Assembly: GCA_944349925.1 (NCBI GenBank)
Contig: CALVNT010000008.1
Coordinates: 2,114 to 66,113, forward strand
Source: an uncultured Clostridia bacterium
Lineage (GTDB): Bacteria; Bacillota; Clostridia; Christensenellales; UBA1242
Length of the DNA stretch: 64,000 nt
Direction of reading: 5' to 3'
Made by a program: the position numbers and the translations under genes. This document shows positions 1,301-49,472 of this stretch, piece by piece. Below the pieces are notes generated by a model that saw only the letters and a list, made by a program, of their open reading frames with translations, made no database searches and was not told the DNA's origin. Numbering within the stretch: the first letter of the stretch is position 1; the number at the start of each line of letters is the position of its first letter.

Positions 1301-3061
1301 TTATTCTTTTTTATCACTTTTAACAAAGCATAATTCTATTTCATAGTTATAATCATTTGATAATAACAAAATATGGTTTAAACAATATTTTGCAATGTTA
1401 GAATCAGAATTTAAAATAGAATTTACACCATCTATATTAATTACGACTTTATATATAAATTTAGAAACTTTTTTCATTTTATCTATAAATTCTTCTTCAT
1501 TATTAAAATTCTTATATAATTCATTATCATCATTTCTCTGTATCTGATTTTGCGAACGCTTAAATAAATCTTTAAAAAAATTTGTATTTCCTAATGTTAG
1601 TTCATTTAATTTTTTCATAGAAAGTTCCACTTGCCTATCTAATTCTCTCATTGAACAATTAAATTTATCCTTTACATGATAAATATAGCACTCATCTTTT
1701 GAGAACTTTAAAACATCGCCAAACTCTATATTATCAGGAATACACTTATGTATTAAAAATCCATTTAAAGATTTTGCTAAAGTCGAATTATACTTATCTT
1801 CATTCAAGACATCCCATTTAGGAAGAGAATCATCGTAACCAAAAATACTTAATTTTTTTTCAAGTAATTTATTTAATCTCATAAAGTAGTTATTTTCCAC
1901 AAAGTAATATACACCATACCACATAAAATAATGTTTATTATTACTTAGAACTTCACCACTTAAATTTTCTATCAACGCACCAAAATTATGTTCATCATCA
2001 TTATCAACGCCGATAACTGTTATTTTTTGTAAGAATTTTATTTTATCTTCATACGGCTTATCTTTTACATTTAAAGATTTATATAAATTTCTTAATGCTG
2101 AAAAAATGTCATATGAATCATCAAATTCTTCAAAATTATCTTCATAAAAAATTTTATATTTATCATAATCTAAAAATGTTTCAACATCTTTATTAAAAAA
2201 ATCATAACCTAAGTATGTTTCTTCTTGTTTTTCGATGTTGTTTAAAATATCATCATAAACAGTCGCATTATTTTTATCAATTTCTTCTTTATCTTTATGC
2301 CTATCCAAAATTTTTATATCTATAAAATCATTTTCTAATTTATCTGGTATCAAGTCATTAATAATTTTAAGCGATTTTATTAAAGCACTTAAATTCATTG
2401 AACTTGATAATTGCAAACTATCCTTTGCAATAACTCCTAATTTATTTTTTTTCGAAGATTGTGGAATATTAAGCAATTTACAAATTATTTCTTTATTGTT
2501 AATTTTTCCTTTTAATCCCTTTATTATTGAATCAATATCTTGTACATCAAAATAATTCAACTCTTGTCTAAAAACTTTATTTTCAGAATGTGTCTTTCCA
2601 CTCATATTGTTCGAATTTAATGCCGTAACCTTAAATGCAGAATCTATAGAACTTAGTGCAATTAATCCAAATTTATCAATTATATAAACAGAAATAACTC
2701 TGAAACCTTGCCCAGTTGGAACAGCATATATTCTATTTTTAATAATAAGAAAAAGTATAGAACTTTGAATCAAGCCTTTTTCATTTAATATTTCTTCTTC
2801 CTTTTCCACAAAATCAGTCGTAAATTTGCTTAAAGCTGACTGTATTTTATAACTATAATAATATAAAAATAATGACACATCACCTACAACATTATTACAT
2901 AGTTTTTGGATTTTATATTCTGGGAACTTTTTCATAATAAAATCAATACAAGCACTATTATCATTATTGTCAAAACTATAATTTTCTTTTTTCATTTCAG
3001 ATTTAATCAAATCTATATTTAATAAATTAATATTGTGCATTTTCGCCGTTGTTTGTGCCAT
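1301..3061 (-). CDS. TIGR04141/DUF6119-like sporadically distributed protein
   Basis: RIYAVPTGQG, KFGL, EDKYN, IEFGDVL...YIYHVK (PD-(D/E)xK-like C-terminus); start moved to the ATG at 3061 behind AAGGAG; very AT-rich. Confidence 0.6.
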   Translation of the reverse strand: MAQTTAKMHNINLLNIDLIKSEMKKENYSFDNNDNSACIDFIMKKFPEYKIQKLCNNVVGDVSLFLYYYSYKIQSALSKFTTDFVEKEEEILNEKGLIQSSILFLIIKNRIYAVPTGQGFRVISVYIIDKFGLIALSSIDSAFKVTALNSNNMSGKTHSENKVFRQELNYFDVQDIDSIIKGLKGKINNKEIICKLLNIPQSSKKNKLGVIAKDSLQLSSSMNLSALIKSLKIINDLIPDKLENDFIDIKILDRHKDKEEIDKNNATVYDDILNNIEKQEETYLGYDFFNKDVETFLDYDKYKIFYEDNFEEFDDSYDIFSALRNLYKSLNVKDKPYEDKIKFLQKITVIGVDNDDEHNFGALIENLSGEVLSNNKHYFMWYGVYYFVENNYFMRLNKLLEKKLSIFGYDDSLPKWDVLNEDKYNSTLAKSLNGFLIHKCIPDNIEFGDVLKFSKDECYIYHVKDKFNCSMRELDRQVELSMKKLNELTLGNTNFFKDLFKRSQNQIQRNDDNELYKNFNNEEEFIDKMKKVSKFIYKVVINIDGVNSILNSDSNIAKYCLNHILLLSNDYNYEIELCFVKSDKKE

Positions 3062-3306
3062 ACAATACTTCTCCTTATATATAAATAATAACATAAAAAA
3101 ATATATTTTTTATATATTCGACAAAAATTGCAATTTTATTTTTAGCTACACTTTAAAATATTTATTATCAAGCAATCTCTATTTTTCATTAGCTTTAATT
3201 TTATATTGCAAACACTTCGAAAGACTTTGTTTATTTAGTTTTTATGATAACAATGTACTTTTAAAACAAAAAGATATAATTTAACCTTCTCTTTTTTTAA
3301 TATTTT

Positions 3307-4032
3307 TTAGTTATCATCTATAATAATCACATTAACTTTTTTAGTATGAATAGTACAAGCGTCTAATGCAATCATTTTATCAGTTATAAATGGTTCAAAA
3401 TTTTCATTTAAACCAAATTCATCATATTGTTCTGGATTTTGCTCATGCCAAAATGCACTACAATGCCAATGCCCACAAACGATTATTTTGCCCGGTTCAT
3501 AAATTTCATATCTATACATTTCTACTGGATTGTTCCAACGAGCTTTTATCCATCTTTCTTTTCTTGCATTTCGCCAATCTTCATCATATAAATAGCAGTT
3601 TTCTATAATTGGTATCCAAGCATGAACAAAAATATATTTTTTTGTTTCATAATAATCAACACACATATCAAGAATTTCTTGCAAGCCTGTTTCTCTTGCT
3701 ATTTTTCGCAAATCAAATTCGCTTATTTGCCATTCTGGACACAAATCAATAATGGTATAAGCTGTCCCATTTGATAAGTCATATTGTGTATTTTTATTTC
3801 GTTCAATCATCTCTTGCATTAAATCTTCATGATTACCACGAACTAAAATAAGCTTATCTTTATGAGATAAAATAAAATCTATGATTTGTTTTGGTTGTCT
3901 TCCCCTGTCAAAAAGATCTCCACAAATAATAATTTTGTGATTAGGATTATTTATATCGAATCCCTTTTCTTTTAATGCAGTTTGCCACTCATCAAAATAT
4001 CCATGGATATCAGAACATACAAAATATTTCAT
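3307..4032 (-). CDS. Calcineurin-like metallophosphoesterase
   Basis: SDIHG, GDLFDRG, RGNHE, FVHA and CGHWH motifs. Confidence 0.9.
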   Translation of the reverse strand: MKYFVCSDIHGYFDEWQTALKEKGFDINNPNHKIIICGDLFDRGRQPKQIIDFILSHKDKLILVRGNHEDLMQEMIERNKNTQYDLSNGTAYTIIDLCPEWQISEFDLRKIARETGLQEILDMCVDYYETKKYIFVHAWIPIIENCYLYDEDWRNARKERWIKARWNNPVEMYRYEIYEPGKIIVCGHWHCSAFWHEQNPEQYDEFGLNENFEPFITDKMIALDACTIHTKKVNVIIIDDN

Positions 4033-4135
4033 ATTTACTCCTTTCTAACATCATAGAAAATAATGATATTATAATTTTCATACATTTTTAAAAAATATTG
4101 ATTAAAACAAACATGTTATTAAAATGTAATTATTA

Positions 4136-44305: not shown

Positions 44306-44599
44306 TTAAATTAAAAAAGGATCTTTCTTTAAGGCCTCTTCAACATCTCCATATTTTTTCGTTATATTCTCAAGTTCTTTTGTCAAACTTTCTACAGGCA
44401 AAACAAATATATTTGGATTAACTAAAAGTAAAGATGATATATCTTCTTGTGGATAACCATAATGAATTAAAGCGATCATATCTTCAGTAAACTCTTCTAA
44501 TGTAATGTTTTCAAACATAGGTGCCATCATTTCTATGCTTTTGATTTCATCATCAGTTAAATCTAATTTTAAAAGAAAATGTTTTAACTCTTTTTGCAT
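44306..44599 (-). CDS. Small protein with degenerate mTERF-like helical repeats
   Basis: FLLKLDLTDDEIKSIEMMAP and LIHYGYPQEDISSLLLVNPNIF; ATG at 44599, 10 nt after the upstream stop. Confidence 0.55.
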   Translation of the reverse strand: MQKELKHFLLKLDLTDDEIKSIEMMAPMFENITLEEFTEDMIALIHYGYPQEDISSLLLVNPNIFVLPVESLTKELENITKKYGDVEEALKKDPFLI

Positions 44600-44609
44600 A
44601 CCTTTCCCC

Positions 44610-46229
44610 TTATTTATCCAAACCAAGTTCTTCTTCGGATAATTTTAAATCTAAGCCATCAATTTTTTCTGCCACCTTTTTATATTCCGCATTTATTTGT
44701 TTTACAGCTTCTTTTGTAAATGGATATCTTTCCATTAAAGTTTTACTATCAATATTATATTTTTGAAAAAAGTTTTTTTCGCTGATAAGTAGATCCATTG
44801 CCGTAATTTTTAATTTCCCTATTTCTCTTATTCCACATAGTCTAGCCCAAGTTTTTTTATGGCTTGTCATTTGCCAACAAGGTCTATCTAAAAAAGAATC
44901 GGAACCATATGCAATATACAAAATCATATATCTTACTTTAAGGCTCTTCTCTGGTGCTGTTAATATATCTGGATGCTCAACTACAACACTATTATCAATT
45001 TTCAATTTTTTGATTGATTTATGTTTATTGATTATACTATCTTTATCCAATCCTAACAATGTTGGCATTTTGATAAGCATCTTACAGAATTCTTTCTTTG
45101 TTAATTTAAATTCTTCCATGTAAAATGTTTTTTTCGCTTGAACGCTATCTTTATCCAGTCCTATCAATGTTGGCATTTTAATAAACATCTTACAAAATTC
45201 TTCATTTGTTAAGTCAAATTCTTCCATGTAAAATGTTTTTTTTGCTTGAACGCTTTCTTTATCCAATCCCAACAATGCTGGCATTTTAATGAAAATCTTA
45301 CAAAATTCTTCCTTTGTTAATTTAAATTCTTTCATATAAAATGATTTTTTCGCTTGTATGTTATCTTCACTATAACATAATAATGCTGGCAAGACCTTAA
45401 CTATCTTATCAAATTCTTCCTTTGTTAATTTAAATTCTTGGATATAAAACGATTTTTTATCTTTGACACTTTCTTTACTTAAACTTAACAATGCTGGCAA
45501 TTTTATAACCATCTTGCTAAATTCTTCCTTTGTTAATTTAAACTCTTGGATATAAAATGATTTTTTCGCTTGTATTTTATCTTCACTATAACATAATAAT
45601 GCTGGCAAGACCTTAACTATCTTATCAAATTCTTGCTTTGTTAATTTAAACTCTTGGATATAAAATGATTTTTTATCTTGAACACTTTCTTTACTTAAAC
45701 TTAACAATGCTGGCATTTTGATAAGCATCTTCCCAAATTCTTCCTTTGTTAAGCCAAATTCTTCCATGCAAAATGCTTCTTTCGCTTGTATATTATCTTC
45801 ACTATAACATAATAATGCTGGCAAGACCTTAACCATCTTATCAAATTCTTCCTTTGTTAAGCCAAATTCTTCCATGTAAAATGCTTCTTTCGCTTGAACG
45901 CTATCTTTATCAAATCCTAACAATGATGGCAAAATTTTAACCATCTTGCAAAATTCTGCTTTTGTTAAATTAAATTCTTCCATATAAAATGATATTTTTG
46001 CTCGAACACCATCTTCATTGTAACCCAACAATGCTGGGAAATTTACGATCATCTTCCCAAATTCTTCCTTTGTTAAATTAAATTCTTCCATATAAAATTT
46101 AATTTTTTCTTCAACTTTATTTTGATCTAAATATGAAATTCGTGAAAAGGTATCTTCTTTGCCTTCTAAATCTTTATCAATAAAACCAAATTTTTCTTTT
46201 AATATTTCTTTTATATCTTGTTTTGCCAT
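44610..46229 (-). CDS. Tandem 36-aa repeat protein, mTERF-like alpha-solenoid
   Basis: Ten repeats of F(Y)xxEFxLTKEEFxK(M/I)xxx(L/M)PALLxxxx(D/E)xxxxKxx; AGGAG RBS; own promoter. Confidence 0.75.
   Translation of the reverse strand: MAKQDIKEILKEKFGFIDKDLEGKEDTFSRISYLDQNKVEEKIKFYMEEFNLTKEEFGKMIVNFPALLGYNEDGVRAKISFYMEEFNLTKAEFCKMVKILPSLLGFDKDSVQAKEAFYMEEFGLTKEEFDKMVKVLPALLCYSEDNIQAKEAFCMEEFGLTKEEFGKMLIKMPALLSLSKESVQDKKSFYIQEFKLTKQEFDKIVKVLPALLCYSEDKIQAKKSFYIQEFKLTKEEFSKMVIKLPALLSLSKESVKDKKSFYIQEFKLTKEEFDKIVKVLPALLCYSEDNIQAKKSFYMKEFKLTKEEFCKIFIKMPALLGLDKESVQAKKTFYMEEFDLTNEEFCKMFIKMPTLIGLDKDSVQAKKTFYMEEFKLTKKEFCKMLIKMPTLLGLDKDSIINKHKSIKKLKIDNSVVVEHPDILTAPEKSLKVRYMILYIAYGSDSFLDRPCWQMTSHKKTWARLCGIREIGKLKITAMDLLISEKNFFQKYNIDSKTLMERYPFTKEAVKQINAEYKKVAEKIDGLDLKLSEEELGLDK
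45018..46097 (-). repeat. Ten tandem 108-bp coding repeats
   Basis: Recurring AAATTCTTCCTTTGTTAA...AATGCTGGCA units at a 108-bp period. Confidence 0.92.
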
Positions 46230-46306: not shown

Positions 46307-46431
46307 TTATCTATTTTTACTTTGTCTTAGCACATTTAGGCAAATTCCAACTCCTGCCATAAACACAGTTACCGAAGTTCCTCCGCTTGAAATAAATGGA
46401 AGAGGCAAACCTGTTGGAGGAATTGAACATG
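46307..46431 (-). repeat. Displaced copy of the ftsW 3' end (att-like), encodes ...SIPPTGLPLPFISSGGTSVTVFMAGVGICLNVLRQSKNR*
   Basis: 46344-46417 is identical over 74 bp to 48397-48470; flanking differences are synonymous up to RQS. Confidence 0.92.
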
Positions 46432-46761
46432 TTAAAATAAGTTCGTGCACTAGTAATAAAATCTAACGGATTATAAGTTTTTATCTAAAATTCATAAACT
46501 ACTTTGTTACATAATTTTAATCATAAGAATTTGCATTTAGTCTTTTATTCAAAAATTCTATAAAAGATTTATTTTTGTTATCGTTGGGTTGTAAATTTCA
46601 AACAAATAAAATTTTGTTTTCAAAACTATTTCTCGTATTACTATGTATGAAAATTTATCGTTTGCCAACAAAAAGCCTTTATTTACTAACAAGTGTACAT
46701 TTATTCAAATATAAAGTAAAAACTGTATTATTAATTTATTCTTACAAGTGAGTTAAAATTG

Positions 46762-47382
46762 TTATATGGTTAACCCTTTTGAAATTTCTATCATTTCATT
46801 ATTGTGTTCTTTCATTGTTTGTTTTTTCCCTAAATCTAACCCTCTATAATATGATATGTAGTCGTTGCTTCCACCAACTTGATAATTTAGGTGGATATAA
46901 TTACAATCATAATTATTTTCTATTTTTTTAAAAGTTGGGTCAACTAAAATCCATTTTCCATTAAAATAGCACTCACAAAAAGAATGCCCCTTGCAAACAG
47001 TTATATCTTTATTATTTTTAACATCTTCAACAAATGATTTTTCAGCTGTATGCAAAAGTGTTGCAGGTATGCCAAGTTGTCTAGCAAAAGTAACAAACAA
47101 TGTCGCCCAATCTGTACACCCCGTAGCCACGCCACTCTTCCAAATTTCTTTTGCAGTTCTTTGAAATTTATTTTTTATAGAAAATTCTTCACTATTTGAA
47201 CTTGTTACATGTGCATGTACCCATCTCATTAAACTTTCAATGTCATTCGCGTGAGAATGCGTATTTTTGTCATACAATATTTTATTTTTTACTATTTCAC
47301 CACTCAAAAATGGTTCGGTTAAAACTCCTGCTTGTAGATAAGTTTGAATATCATTTATATTTAGTTTATTTAATTCCTTCAT
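46762..47382 (-). CDS. Transglutaminase-like (Cys-His-Asp) domain protein
   Basis: TGCTDWA..F...ARQLGIP, GHSFCECY..GKWILVDPT. Confidence 0.85.
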   Translation of the reverse strand: MKELNKLNINDIQTYLQAGVLTEPFLSGEIVKNKILYDKNTHSHANDIESLMRWVHAHVTSSNSEEFSIKNKFQRTAKEIWKSGVATGCTDWATLFVTFARQLGIPATLLHTAEKSFVEDVKNNKDITVCKGHSFCECYFNGKWILVDPTFKKIENNYDCNYIHLNYQVGGSNDYISYYRGLDLGKKQTMKEHNNEMIEISKGLTI

Positions 47383-47399
47383 ATTTATTTAATTTCTCC

Positions 47400-47560
47400 A
47401 TATATGACAATTTTACCATATTTCCAACATTTCCGCAATTGTTTTTACTTTGTTTTGCAACATACAAACAAATACCAAGCCAAGCCATAAAAACAGTAAC
47501 TGAAGTCCCACCACTTGAAATGACAGGAAGAGAACGTAATTTTGGTAATATTGAACCTAT
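47400..47560 (-). repeat. Second, diverged copy of the ftsW 3' end
   Basis: Translates as GSILPKLRSLPVISSGGTSVTVFMAWLGICLYVAKQSK..., collinear with FtsW GSIPPTGLPLPFISSGGTSVTVFMAGVGICLNVLRQS. Confidence 0.85.
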
Positions 47561-47683
47561 TTAAATCAATTACTTCGCTTACAAAAAATAGTTAAAATTA
47601 TATTTCTTACCATTTTATAATTAAAATTTAATTTTATTTTACTTTCGAATTAATTTTTTTTACAAATAATTGATTATTTATTT

Positions 47684-48229
47684 CTATACTTTGTTCCATT
47701 CTTCTTTTAAAAGTCCGTAACAATACAAATCTACAAATTTATTGTTTTTAATTCTTGCCTTTCTTTCAATGCCTTCTTGAACAAATCCAAGTTTGCTTGC
47801 CAACTTTTTACTTGCATCATTTTTATTCCAAATAACAACTTTTATTCTATTCATTTTAACAATATTAAAAATGTAATTTATTAAACACTTCACTGCTTCA
47901 TAGGCAAACCCTTGATTTTGGAATTTAGGGCTTAATCCCCAACCAATTTCACACCATTTATGTTTAATATTCCAATCTTCTATCGACACACTTCCTATAA
48001 GTTTATTGTTATAAAAAATTCCCCATAACAAATTAGGTTCATCTTTATTGTCATAATTCTTAATAATTGAATTTAATGATATTTCATATTCTTGTTTTGT
48101 TTTAACATCGGTTGGTAAAAATTTATGATATTCTCTGTTGCTTTTCCATTCTACATAATCATTTAAATTCTTTTTTGTTATTTTTTTTAAAACCAATCTT
48201 TCAGTTTTTAGAGTTTTCACTTGTATCAT
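47684..48229 (-). CDS. GNAT (RimJ/RimL-type) acetyltransferase
   Basis: LKTERLVLK, EIGWGL...FQNQGFA.EA, N.AS.KLA.KLGF..EG..R. Confidence 0.9.
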   Translation of the reverse strand: MIQVKTLKTERLVLKKITKKNLNDYVEWKSNREYHKFLPTDVKTKQEYEISLNSIIKNYDNKDEPNLLWGIFYNNKLIGSVSIEDWNIKHKWCEIGWGLSPKFQNQGFAYEAVKCLINYIFNIVKMNRIKVVIWNKNDASKKLASKLGFVQEGIERKARIKNNKFVDLYCYGLLKEEWNKV

Positions 48230-48311
48230 ATATAAACCATTTACAATATTGTAACAAAAAATATAAAAATTGTAAACAAGAAATTTGCCTTTTAAGACTT
48301 TTTGTCTTAAT

Positions 48312-49472
48312 TTATATTTTTTGTTTTATTTTCTTATTGACTATTTTTACTTTTTTGTAATCTTGTCCTTGACTTTGTCTTAAAACATTTAAACATATTC
48401 CAACTCCTGCCATAAACACAGTTACCGAAGTTCCTCCGCTTGAAATAAATGGAAGAGGCAAACCTGTTGGCGGAATTGAACCTGTAACAACTGCTATATT
48501 TAATAATGTTTGAACGCCTATGATAAACGCCACACCACTTACTAGCATGGCACCAAAGCGGTCTTTTGCATTTAATGCTATTTTTATAAGATTGTAAATA
48601 AGTGCCACAAAAACAAACATGAGCATACATAAACCAAAGAAACCTATTTCTTCTCCAATTATAGATAAAATAAAATCAGATTCTGCAAATGGCAAAAAAA
48701 GATATTTTTGTCTTGAATTAAAGAGTCCAACACCGAATAGTCCACCACTTCCTAGCCCATAAAGAGATTGTATAAGTTGAAAACCTTCCCCTTGTGGTGA
48801 CGCCCAAGGATCAATAAATGCCATAAGTCTTTTTAGTCTATAAGGCTCAAGGACTACAAGCAAAGGGACAACTGCTCCCGCTGGGATTGAAAACATAAGA
48901 GTGTGCTTTTTGCTCATACCACCAATTATCAACATGAAAAGTGTAACAAAAGCAATGCACATAGTTACGCTCATGCTTGGCTCTAACATTGTTAAAACGC
49001 AAATACTACCCCCTGCAATTAAGACTGGCAAAAGACCTTTAAATGTTTTTACTTTGTCATGGTTATCCGACATATAGCCAGCAATAAAAATGATGAGAGC
49101 AAACTTCGCAATTTCAGAAGGTTGAATAGAAATTCCTAAAATCGAAATCCATCGTTTCGCGCCATAACTTTCCATGCCAAGACCGGGCACAAAAACCAAA
49201 ACAAGCAAAACGATAGCAATTATCAATATCCATAGCTTGTATTTTTTTAGTATATGATAATCAACAAAACTAAAAAAAATCATAGCAACTATGCCAAGCA
49301 CAACTCCGAAAATTTGTTTAAAAAGAAAAAAGTATTGGTTGCCATAATGATACTGCGCGCTATAAAAACTAGCGCTGTAAACCATGATGCAACCAAAAAT
49401 TGTCAGTGCAAGCACAAGAAATATAATTTTAAAAATGTCTCTATTGCATTTCGATTTTATCGTAAACACCAA
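48312..49472 (-). CDS. ftsW: SEDS protein FtsW/SpoVE
   Basis: GCIMVYSAS, GAKRWI, QPSEIAK, DFILSIIGEEIG, P.TG.PLPFIS.GG; follows murD. Confidence 0.93.
   Translation of the reverse strand: MVFTIKSKCNRDIFKIIFLVLALTIFGCIMVYSASFYSAQYHYGNQYFFLFKQIFGVVLGIVAMIFFSFVDYHILKKYKLWILIIAIVLLVLVFVPGLGMESYGAKRWISILGISIQPSEIAKFALIIFIAGYMSDNHDKVKTFKGLLPVLIAGGSICVLTMLEPSMSVTMCIAFVTLFMLIIGGMSKKHTLMFSIPAGAVVPLLVVLEPYRLKRLMAFIDPWASPQGEGFQLIQSLYGLGSGGLFGVGLFNSRQKYLFLPFAESDFILSIIGEEIGFFGLCMLMFVFVALIYNLIKIALNAKDRFGAMLVSGVAFIIGVQTLLNIAVVTGSIPPTGLPLPFISSGGTSVTVFMAGVGICLNVLRQSQGQDYKKVKIVNKKIKQKI

Follow-up and report, generated by a model that had tools for sequence, protein, structure and literature searches.

Tandem single-gene cassettes and displaced gene ends at the 3' end of ftsW in gut Clostridia

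The 3' end of ftsW, which encodes an essential peptidoglycan polymerase, carries tandem cassette arrays in a family of uncultured gut Clostridia with genomes of about 1 Mb, represented by metagenome-assembled genomes (MAGs) from chicken, ruminant, and human. The cassettes hold mostly one gene each and no recombinase, they are separated by displaced copies of the ftsW end that share a common breakpoint, and they are polymorphic for presence and absence. Comparison of displaced and working ends shows that these tails travel with the cassettes and replace the FtsW end that is in use. The arrays are probably built by site-specific integration at a core within ftsW, cassette by cassette, with some homologous recombination besides, and we infer that the cassettes are mobilized in trans by a recombinase.

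The ftsW locus in the window

The window, meaning the whole stretch of 64,000 nucleotides that was analysed, contains a small, old, and partly decayed two-cassette example of this family-wide system at the 3' end of ftsW (spoVE by position). The genes upstream of the array are murE/F, mraY, murD, and ftsW, with murD on one side of ftsW and the cassettes on the other. The first-pass annotation had read, on the minus strand, ftsW, a GNAT gene, a first copy of the ftsW tail (copy A), a transglutaminase-like gene, and a second tail copy (copy B), an order that is borne out by ORF calls and Pfam matches. The features are as follows.

48312..49472, minus strand: ftsW/spoVE-type SEDS gene, 386 aa (PF01098, E 2.8e-97)
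48463..48482, minus strand: core and breakpoint GGTTCAATTCCGCCAACAGG, codons G331-G337, at which every displaced tail in the family starts
48312..48482, minus strand: working FtsW tail, GSIPPTG...QSQGQDYKKVKIVNKKIKQKI plus stop (from the sequence)
48248..48276, minus strand: promoter-like site upstream of the GNAT gene, TTTACA-17-TACAAT, its second hexamer preceded by TG (consensus match only)
47684..48229, minus strand: cassette 1 cargo, GNAT acetyltransferase, 181 aa (PF13302, E 1.1e-25)
47558..47585, minus strand: arm A, a diverged version of the 3' arm conserved among cassettes (aligned by eye to the family consensus)
47444..47557, minus strand: displaced tail copy A, in frame, with 70% identity to ftsW (repeat search; the frame continues to 47366)
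46762..47382, minus strand: cassette 2 cargo, transglutaminase-core protein, 206 aa (PF01841, E 1.6e-11)
46430..46457, minus strand: arm B, matching the TAGTGCAATAACTCGTGTTAACA arm subtype at 16 of 21 positions (manual count)
46307..46429, minus strand: displaced tail copy B, CSIPPTG...LRQSKNR plus stop (repeat search and sequence)
46340..48392, no strand assigned: 2,053-bp block comprising both cassettes, missing in a related strain (run X4 contig)

In the window genome, ftsW is the only SEDS gene matched, with one full-length match. Its product belongs among the SEDS proteins by this full-length PF01098 match and by alignment to solved FtsW and RodA chains (E 5e-57 to an FtsW chain), which includes the motif G-x-P-x-x-G-L-x-L-P-F-x-S-x-G-G-S; residues 331-349 of the window FtsW align to the GLLPTKGLTLPFLSYGGSS stretch of that chain. 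A repeat search recovers one family with three 122-nt copies, at 46316-46437, 47444-47565 (70% identical), and 48369-48490 (92%). Both displaced copies begin, as had been proposed, at the Gly331 codon with (G/T)GTTCAAT, and both are preceded by a related stretch carrying the non-ftsW motif CGAA.T.ATT..TTAA.A, which in our reading is a diverged member of the arm of about 28 nt that lies upstream of displaced tails throughout the family. The descriptions of the two copies hold as well. An exact 74-nt run is common to copy B and ftsW (48397-48470 = 46344-46417); beyond it, copy B differs by synonymous changes only up to R-Q-S and then closes with K-N-R-stop, while copy A is free of stops across its homologous part. 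The insert had further been said to lack a recombinase, and the six ORFs between ftsW and murA give no match to a recombinase family. Relatives of the GNAT cargo sit in arrays of genomes G021, G013, and G171. Contigs of run X1, the run in which the window is best represented, span the window cassettes with no differences, but X1 may be the source sample of the window, so this agreement is not independent support. The arms in the window have diverged, and its cassettes may no longer be mobile.

Distribution across relatives

Within the genus, displaced tails were confirmed in 18 genomes, and 22 of 154 give more than one tail match. Across the family, 20 of 151 sampled genomes do so at E ≤ 1e-8, with a maximum of 11; the longest arrays, with 11 tails, belong to another genus of the family. 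Roughly one species in seven carries an array, and the pattern recurs in MAGs of many independent records. In all genomes examined, the first residue of the displaced tails falls at ~328-338 of FtsW. The first-pass annotation had named fixed gene content and random start points in relatives as grounds for giving up its reading; the relatives have the opposite, variable arrays with a common breakpoint. A literature search returned no report of ftsW as an integration target. Separately, four genomes outside the family in an order-wide sample (G190, G243, G387, and G472) have two matches each, which may be SEDS paralogues.

Cassette anatomy

The proposal of one-gene cassettes of about 1 kb, stacked in tandem at a single fixed point of ftsW, extends well to the relatives. 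Across 62 units from 33 loci, the tail-to-tail length has a median of 901 bp (interquartile range 796-1011 bp), 53 of the 62 units carry one ORF (minimum 90 aa), and 64 of the 66 ORFs read in the direction of ftsW. The order of parts within a unit is conserved, made up of the core, the tail (the last ~40 FtsW codons plus stop), a hairpin terminator, an extended -10 promoter, an RBS, the cargo ORF, a cargo terminator, and the arm of ~28 nt. The 5' module that follows the tail consists of the conserved terminator hairpin, TGnTATAAT, and AGGAG-ATG, and the cargo start sits at a fixed distance set by this terminator-promoter-RBS module. The cargo itself includes GNAT acetyltransferases, Nudix, HAD, and HD hydrolases, an APH-GNAT fusion, ABC-F proteins, and others.

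The arm has the consensus ...TTTATAATACAATAACTSRTGTTAASA followed by GGYTCAAT, with per-column conservation of 70-90% across genera, and its motif is nearly confined to arrays (25 of 29 places, in 4 of 5 genomes; the control gave one match). By inspection, symmetry in the arm is limited to a 4-bp TAAC/GTTA pair, and the aligned core has no conserved dyad symmetry beyond coding constraint. Two short arm matches, on contigs C16 and C22 of the window genome, considered as second att sites, lie inside ordinary coding sequence and were set aside as chance. The start of the spare tails has a conserved in-frame stop and then ATG or GTG, downstream of a promoter-like TATAAT box in the arm; the tails may be expressed as membrane micro-proteins of ~45 aa. 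Stops or small hairpin inserts break 30 of 68 displaced tails, which indicates that many arrays are fossils; the two-hairpin insert of ~100 nt present in many displaced tails had no Rfam match at that place (E ≤ 1).

Tail replacement and an empty site

Cassette gain had been predicted to swap the C-terminus of FtsW, and this is the state found in G090 and G106, both of which have a foreign working tail and, displaced, the tail of their own lineage. The displaced tail of G090 is 93.5% identical to the working tail of a relative and starts exactly at G331. In this genome the foreign and native tails diverge beginning with the third base of codon G331, which places the crossover at the very edge of homology. 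The working tail of G096 matches a displaced tail of G015 at 90% identity, against 71% for the gene bodies. L051:2313-3340 and L081:1398-2427 are 90.2% identical, with gene bodies at 70.8%, and the same HAD cassette stands second in one of these two arrays and first in the other. One GNAT cargo retains 91% protein identity across genera.

Tails of one array appear to be independent acquisitions, since their pS within arrays (0.66) is equal to the between-genome value and the pN/pS of displaced tails is as in working tails, at ~0.17-0.19 in a set picked for intactness, which lowers pN. The longest exact run between neighbouring tails has a median of 13.5 bp and reaches at least 25 bp in only 10 of 62 pairs; runs this short make most neighbour pairs a poor RecA substrate. 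Hybrid tails are nevertheless present in G046, in G004, and in copy B of the window, with its 74-nt identity, and show crossover or conversion inside the tail, a signature of homologous recombination.

An empty site, lacking a unit of about 2.05 kb, was among the predictions, and a related strain in a chicken-gut metagenome is without exactly 2,053 bp. The contig of run X4 joins 46339 to 48393, and cassette depth is absent except for one 184-bp bin, which is attributed to another organism. The real ftsW end of this strain is what stands in the window as displaced tail copy B. The joint falls somewhere inside the shared stretch of ~75 nt, and the difference between the strains is probably due to homologous recombination across the 74-nt identical run. 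Other joints in the same read-contig comparison were dropped, because their sides, of 21-28 letters, are not long enough to be reliable.

Search for the recombinase

A family scan of 161 ORFs in and around arrays found no recombinase or transfer gene, and none of about 45 loci has a cognate integrase-bearing element at the site. There were no matches to the arm pattern in viral contigs; a query with the FtsW C-terminus gave 48 pattern matches there, none of which was confirmed by tblastn. Metagenome contigs yielded five stretches on four contigs, all of them array fragments, with no autonomous arm-core-tail element, no circular form, and no terminal overlap suggestive of circles.

Array-flanking ORFs have no PF00589 match that could represent an adjacent intI. 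The window genome has four PF00589 matches, on contigs C22, C15, and C34 and at C8:996-1640, about 49 kb from ftsW, and none of the tyrosine recombinases of array-rich genomes lies near an array. In G090 and G106, one Xer-like enzyme is the only tyrosine recombinase, and serine recombinases are missing. Across the genus, large serine recombinases are frequent, with matches in 90 of 154 genomes; PF00239 is absent from G090, G106, G096, and G016, four of the five array-bearing genomes tested, and among the matches listed, those in array-bearing genomes all lie on contigs other than that of ftsW. A search of the window genome with a Firmicutes dif consensus gave 3-mismatch matches only, 4 vs 7 for the reversed-pattern control, and the flanks of the xer-like gene contain a terminator palindrome and no recognizable dif. 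ComEC and DprA are present in the window genome.

Formation of the arrays

Under site-specific integration, the mobile unit would be equivalent to a circle running from the core at about the G331 codon through to the ~28-nt arm. Recombination at the core would join the tail of the incoming unit to ftsW, so that the gene stays whole, and the earlier tail would be pushed downstream, behind the arm. Repeated rounds would stack cassettes, with the newest adjoining ftsW; the working tail of the window ftsW would, on this model, have come in with the GNAT cassette. The joining would be carried out by a site-specific recombinase supplied in trans, and a candidate is the Xer-like tyrosine recombinase, the sole such enzyme in some array-bearing genomes. 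Homologous recombination between tails would also act where long identity exists, as in the 74-nt run of the window.

Alternatively, though we consider it unlikely, the exchange may be driven by homology with no dedicated recombinase. RecA-dependent loop-out and re-entry would then occur anywhere in the ~120-nt tail homology, natural transformation would spread the units, and the fixed left edge would merely mark where the conserved arm ceases to resemble ftsW. The hybrid tails of G046 and G004 fit such exchange, as do the 74-nt identity of copy B with the 2,053-bp joint inside it, ComEC and DprA in the window genome, arrays with no linked recombinase, and one tyrosine and zero serine recombinases in G090 and G106. 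However, neighbouring tails with a median of 13.5 bp of exact identity and a within-array pS of 0.66 argue against it, as does the G090 crossover at the very edge of homology, and both the non-coding arm conserved across genera and the standardized 5' module are left unexplained.

It is improbable that the units are CIME-type scars, in which IMEs, ICEs, or prophages entered the ftsW 3' end, lost their integrase and most genes, and went on to accrete. One review documents this course of events as a source of tandem elements that lack recombinases and are flanked by att sites at the 3' ends of genes (PMC5704250), and the 90 of 154 genomes with serine recombinases could be taken in its favor. Against this, the 161 ORFs include no integrase or integrase fragment, four of the five array-bearing genomes tested lack PF00239, and array-bearing ftsW contigs carry no serine recombinase among the matches listed. 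The units are also uniform (796-1011 bp interquartile) with a single co-oriented ORF, and random deletion would not leave a standard terminator-promoter-RBS module with a fixed cargo start. Finally, a simple duplication of the ftsW end in place, in tandem, or an artefact of assembly, suggested by three similar copies inside 2.2 kb of a MAG, is scarcely credible given that unrelated genes separate the copies, that arrays of other genera have the same non-ftsW arm, that within-array synonymous distance is saturated, that the pattern recurs in MAGs of many independent records, and that X1 contigs span the cassettes without differences and X4 has a clean empty allele.

Implications

Gene capture of the integron type is among the main ways in which bacteria adapt. 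One enzyme family is known to perform it, and examples in Gram-positive bacteria are hardly known. The ftsW arrays look like an integron-analogous platform in gut Clostridia of ~1 Mb, gathering small modifying enzymes of kinds that integrons also gather. It is quite conceivable, although we stop short of calling it probable, that they represent a second, independently evolved "integron" of Bacillota, a cassette-capture platform in which the attachment site is the coding end of ftsW/spoVE, the cassettes are standardized expression units, the recombinase is encoded elsewhere, and an essential polymerase is re-tailed at each event. The recombinase of such a platform is possibly the single Xer-type enzyme of the cell. 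The standardized cassette would comprise a replacement transmembrane helix and tail, terminator, promoter, RBS, one ORF, and arm, and each gain, loss, or reshuffle would re-tail the cell-wall polymerase. Exchange of the last transmembrane helix and cytoplasmic tail at each event makes the arrays a natural experiment on interchangeable SEDS C-termini. An anchor inside an essential polymerase is unusual, as is a single cassette design that includes a promoter and a ribosome-binding site. The catalyst, once found, would provide a new site-specific tool and explain the flexible gene pool of highly reduced genomes.

Comparison with known systems

Accretion of CIMEs and ICEs is described at gene 3' ends such as fda in Streptococcus thermophilus, the site of ICESt1 and ICESt3, in a review whose text has 0 occurrences of ftsW (PMC5704250). 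As in CIME accretion, the ftsW arrays target the 3' end of a conserved gene, which the element restores while the old end is displaced as attR; they are tandem, recombinase-less, att-flanked units beside which newcomers insert, and they are flanked by direct repeats of the gene end. Unlike CIMEs, they consist of one-gene units of ~0.9 kb with a standard expression module, up to 11 in a row, and the repeat has ~120 coding nt plus the 28-nt arm, whereas the att core of a CIME is ~27 bp. There were also no cognate elements, and no remnants of integration or transfer functions in 161 ORFs, that would point to derivation from an integrase-bearing ICE or IME.

The SCC and pseudo-SCC islands of staphylococci are tandem elements at the 3' end of rlmH (orfX), some of them without recombinase genes. 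Direct repeats of the integration site bound each element, and recombinases of other elements mobilize them in trans. SCC elements span kilobases to tens of kilobases, with repeats of ~15-27 bp and Ccr serine recombinases as the enzyme. The ftsW arrays are likewise tandem recombinase-less units at a conserved gene end, bounded by direct repeats, but four of the five array-bearing genomes tested are without a serine recombinase, and among the matches listed none in an array-bearing genome shares a contig with ftsW. IMEX and the pdif modules of Acinetobacter plasmids are recombinase-less, rely on host Xer, and act at dif or dif-like sites. They would resemble the ftsW arrays if the single Xer-like enzyme is the catalyst; they differ in that the site here is inside ftsW, and no dif-like site was recognized in the window genome or beside the xer-like gene. 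In the tycheposons and tRNA-anchored islands of Prochlorococcus, cargo reportedly builds up at a gene 3' end in streamlined genomes, with partial target copies between blocks. Tycheposons (bioRxiv 10.1101/2020.12.28.424599) use tyrosine recombinases and tRNA targets, while the ftsW arrays use an essential protein gene and no element-borne recombinase.

The arrays had been called integron-like in the first-pass annotation, a term that stands only as an analogy; an adjacent intI and, by inspection, attC-type sites were looked for and neither was found. Inspection of the sequence between ftsW cassettes found none of the foldable imperfect inverted repeats with R''/R' that make an attC-type site. 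The repeat is a collinear coding gene end plus an arm, where integrons have a structured attC. Each ftsW cassette also arrives with a promoter and RBS of its own, the anchor is internal to an essential gene, and the host belongs to Bacillota, in which integrons are, to our knowledge, essentially unknown. What the arrays have in common with integrons and CALINs is a set of promoter-proximal, co-oriented, single-ORF cassettes of ~1 kb (integron cassettes are about 0.5-1.5 kb) with a repeated recombination-associated unit between them, cargo rich in GNATs, small hydrolases, and resistance-like enzymes, and a newest cassette that appears to enter beside the anchor.

The ftsW locus and its spare gene ends

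The genome that carries the window (G000, a MAG of about 0.91 Mb in 40 contigs, 90% complete) has a dcw/sporulation cluster of the Clostridia type, in which ddl, murF/E, mraY, murD and ftsW are followed by murA, a divIB-like gene, ftsA, ftsZ, spoIIGA, sigE and sigG. No SEDS protein other than FtsW gives a full-length match in this genome, and its gene occupies the position that spoVE has in Bacillus. In relatives with no insertion (G009, G019, G008 and G001), murA directly follows ftsW. The window has two single genes behind ftsW, each followed by a displaced copy of the last 40 or so FtsW codons (the tail).

Features of the ftsW locus (window coordinates)
Upstream of ftsW, - strand: murD
49472..48312, - strand: ftsW, 386 aa (PF01098, E 2.8e-97)
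48229..47684, - strand: GNAT gene (PF13302)
From 47557, - strand: copy A, first spare ftsW end
47382..46762, - strand: transglutaminase-core gene (PF01841)
46429..46307, - strand: copy B, second spare ftsW end, with its own stop

A repeat search groups the three ftsW ends into one family of 122-nt copies, two of them 70% and 92% identical to the third, the reference. Both spare copies start at the codon for Gly331 (G331, the core), and a similar non-ftsW stretch, the arm, lies ahead of each. Copy B and the working gene have an exact 74-nt run in common (48397-48470 = 46344-46417), past which copy B shows only synonymous changes until R-Q-S and then reads K-N-R-stop. Copy A has diverged further, with no stop in its homologous part. 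ORFs, Pfam matches, repeats and alignment thus bear out the gene order and common breakpoint of the first-pass annotation, which had proposed integron-like cassettes here, and the alignment likewise upholds its account of both copies. Its remark that the insert holds no recombinase stands as well, with no recombinase family match among the six ORFs between ftsW and murA.

Further downstream (44610-46229, - strand) lies a 539-aa protein of 36-aa (108-nt) tandem repeats that matches Pfam mTERF (PF02536, E 8e-56), a family known almost only from eukaryotes and their organelles. A partner protein of 106 aa is encoded at 44306-44626 (- strand), and the same pair directly follows ftsW in G011 (locus L056).

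Parts of the window occur in 17 public sequencing runs, mostly chicken-gut metagenomes, four of which were compared with it. In run X1, which is probably the source sample and hence not independent, contigs span the cassettes without differences. Run X4, another sample of the same study, yields a 967-nt contig in which 46339 is joined directly to 48393, leaving out 2,053 bp; the shorter side of the joint is 89 nt long, and 75 nt fit both sides. Over 870 ftsW positions this contig has 31 differences from the window, and X4 has no depth over the cassettes save in one 184-bp bin, attributed to another organism. The joint and the absent depth indicate a related strain whose ftsW ends in the copy B tail with the downstream gene at once after, which is the empty site that had been predicted. 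Either the cassette-bearing or the empty state may be ancestral. Because the joint falls within the 74-75-nt identity, homologous recombination is the simplest agent for the 2,053-bp difference.

Distribution of the arrays

The pattern of ftsW tails and cassettes is family-wide. A search with the FtsW C-terminus matched 149 of all 154 species genomes of the genus, 22 of them more than once, and DNA downstream of ftsW was fetched from 23 genus genomes and then 16 more. Displaced tails with the arm were confirmed in 18 (G000, G005, G015, G016, G021, G023, G042, G043, G046, G047, G050, G062, G069, G090, G091, G096, G106 and G109), a set from which G061 was left out. No confirmation was obtained for G064 and G168, for G080, whose contig is too short, or for G105, where the second match proved to be that one gene end again, at a contig start, and was rejected as a displaced tail. 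An exact-pattern scan for the arm returned 21 loci from about 13 named MAG records of deer, chicken and human gut. Several come from further genera of this family and have larger arrays, with an FtsW 52-64% identical to that of the window. G170 has 11 displaced tails across the 12 kb from ftsW to murA, and G171 has six on one contig and others elsewhere. Relatives with the same repeat are titled 'Candidatus Onthoplasma' (Christensenellales in the NCBI placement), 'Clostridia bacterium' or 'uncultured Catabacter'. A family sample of 151 genomes gave 144 with a match and 20 with more than one at E<=1e-8, the highest counts at that threshold being 11, 6, 6, 5 and 4; in an order sample of 401, four genomes outside the window's family had more than one match, perhaps from SEDS paralogues. 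Such arrays are present in 18 genus genomes, G000 among them, and in other genera.

Arm-plus-tail units also occur away from ftsW. In G171 (loci L114, G171:C9, and L113, G171:C7) they lie directly after thrS and after an FMN/pyridine-nucleotide oxidoreductase gene, the latter with three tails and GNAT cargo, and in L048 (G021:C12) one follows an MBL-fold gene. These may be secondary sites or translocated pieces. At three loci synteny breaks exactly behind ftsW or the array, so the ftsW site also marks larger rearrangements: murA and the divIB-like gene are inverted in L073 (G047), and unrelated genes lie downstream in L072 (G046) and L055 (G003).

Anatomy of the unit

The non-redundant loci contained 120 tail hits, 49 working gene ends and 71 displaced. 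Two of the latter were mis-anchored second halves and a third was a copy at a contig start, which left 68 displaced tails for the counts. The 62 tail-to-tail units, from 33 loci, have a median spacing of 901 bp (interquartile range 796-1011, full range 220-2813). Exactly one ORF of at least 90 aa is present in 53 of the 62 units, and 64 of their 66 ORFs run in the orientation of ftsW, so the one-gene cassettes of about 1 kb that had been read from the window hold for the arrays at large. In many units the tail stop is followed by a hairpin (AATGTATACA...TGTATACATTTTTT), an extended -10 box (TGnTATAAT), AGGAG and the cargo ATG, in that order. A loose pattern places this hairpin behind 16 of the 49 working tails and 17 of the 38 intact displaced ones. 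The cargo includes many GNATs, Ser_hydrolase, HAD, HD, Nudix, inositol monophosphatase and peptidase S51 proteins, as well as an NMN transporter, prephenate dehydratase, an APH-GNAT fusion, ABC-F-type proteins and BspA-type LRR proteins. Genes that look to be of resistance type lie between ftsW and murA in L075 (G062, 2784-4127), L080 (G091, 1667-3322) and L085 (G109), namely the fusion of an APH phosphotransferase with GNAT and two ABC-F-type proteins (double ABC_tran plus ABC_tran_Xtn).

Upstream of each displaced tail, the arm has the consensus ...AATTTATAATACAATAACTSRTGTTAASA|GGYTCAATYCCNCCAACAGG, with columns mostly 70-90% conserved. A TATAAT/TATAGT box is present in 41 of the 68, an ftsW-frame stop codon five codons ahead of G331 in 53, and ATG, GTG or TTG three codons ahead in 53. 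The order of box, in-frame stop and ATG or GTG can be seen in loci L105, L115 and L070 and at window 46430-46457 and 47558-47585. With this stop and start, every spare tail becomes a free-standing ORF of about 41-50 codons; the open frames measured are 40-52 aa, and judged by sequence these may be candidate micro-proteins. A 17-nt arm motif (at most one mismatch) is present in four of five array-rich genomes, at 29 places of which 25 fall within array regions; the reversed control occurred once. The same search gave no match in G691, a genome with six tails, which implies that other arm types exist.

Crossover point and movement of tails

The arm differs from ftsW up to the last base ahead of the G331 codon. 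The two tail copies of G090, working and displaced, differ already at core bases 3 and 9, fitting tail ownership, and one secondary junction begins its homology at base 9. Five displaced copies have the S-I codons replaced (GLV or GMV) and keep P-P-T-G-L-P onward. These alignments would put the exchange somewhere from the first base of the G331 codon to about 10 nt beyond it. No conserved dyad was seen at the core beyond coding-sequence constraint.

Tails move together with cassettes and replace the FtsW end. G015 and G096 have in common a 1,034-nt block of 90.2% identity, with ftsW bodies only 70.8% identical. The block starts 6 nt past the first G331 base and spans a tail, a HAD gene and the arm into the next tail. 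The block's tail is the working FtsW end in G096 and the second, displaced tail in G015, where an extra Ser-hydrolase cassette precedes it. G090 and its sister G106 have a working tail of the 'FISAGSTSLLVFMSAIGVVLNVDRQSR' type, typical of other lineages, and a displaced copy that starts exactly at G331, directly behind the arm, with 93.5% identity to the working tail of the relative G007. The proposal that each gain of a cassette swaps the FtsW tail is supported by the G015/G096 block and by this foreign working tail. Between G171 and G021, genomes of different genera, a GNAT cargo protein has 91% identity.

Tails within one array are not local duplicates. Among intact tails of this kind synonymous difference is saturated, with a pS of 0.658 over 19 pairs within arrays and 0.657 over 212 pairs between loci. 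The longest exact run between neighbouring tails has a median of 13.5 bp, reaching at least 25 bp in 10 and at least 50 bp in 2 of 62 pairs. The pN/pS of intact tails (0.17-0.19) equals that of working tails (0.18, 105 pairs); intact here means no stop and at least 60% identity, a choice that biases pN downward and leaves the pS result unaffected. Of the 68 displaced tails 38 are intact, and the other 30 have stops or inserts, among them a recurrent two-hairpin insert of about 100 nt and a hairpin insert of about 40 nt. In several genera, many spare tails carry the former (about 100-110 nt; GCGTCAAAAC...GTTTTGACGC plus a T-run, and CCCCRCAA...TTGCGGGG) after their 'GLPLP' codons and ahead of 'AGSTS' (L047 in G021, L059 in G016, L070 in G042, L088, L094, L095, L101, L122 and L123), and the latter follows 'LLVF' in L096, L048 and L074. 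Neither matched Rfam (E<=1 for the two-hairpin insert).

Candidate recombinases

None of 161 ORFs in and around the arrays (21 + 53 + 52 + 35) matches a recombinase or transposase family. G000 encodes four PF00589 proteins, namely an Xer-like protein of 363 aa (contig C22), two integrases of about 330-360 aa (C15 and C34) and a 214-aa fragment (C8:996-1640), and one serine recombinase of 598 aa on a 5.9-kb contig; none of the five is near ftsW. Of the 154 genus genomes, 90 have homologues of the serine recombinase, and among the matches listed none is on the ftsW contig of an array-bearing genome. The G000 protein (C25:3528-5321, outside the window) has 100% identity across 597 residues with one in G005 (C1:258135-259925), also not near ftsW, which points to very recent transfer of its element between two species. 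G090 (100% complete, 8 contigs) and G106 each have a single PF00589 match, which is Xer-like, and PF00239 has no match in G090, G106, G096 or G016. The idea of a serine recombinase as the agent thus gained no support. Among resident enzymes, the Xer-like recombinase is the one candidate that all have in common. A search of G000 with a Firmicutes dif consensus, and of the flanks of the xer-like gene, gave no convincing dif site to compare. ComEC and DprA are present in G000, making DNA uptake a possible delivery route.

Comparison with known systems

The finding is real, and the first-pass reading is supported in all its testable parts. The window locus is an old, partly decayed and polymorphic member of a widespread cassette-array system, which is apparently undescribed so far: no report of ftsW/spoVE as an integration target, or of such arrays, was found in the full-text literature outside subscription journals or in the review PMC5704250. 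The closest documented process, described in that review, is the site-specific accretion that involves cis-mobilizable elements at the 3' ends of genes, which likewise restores the gene end and involves att-flanked units with no recombinase; the ftsW arrays differ in their uniform one-gene units, their standard expression module and the lack of a visible parent element. They resemble integrons and CALINs in array logic and cassette size, but show neither an adjacent intI nor attC sites. SCC arrays, tycheposons and Xer-dependent modules offer partial analogies.
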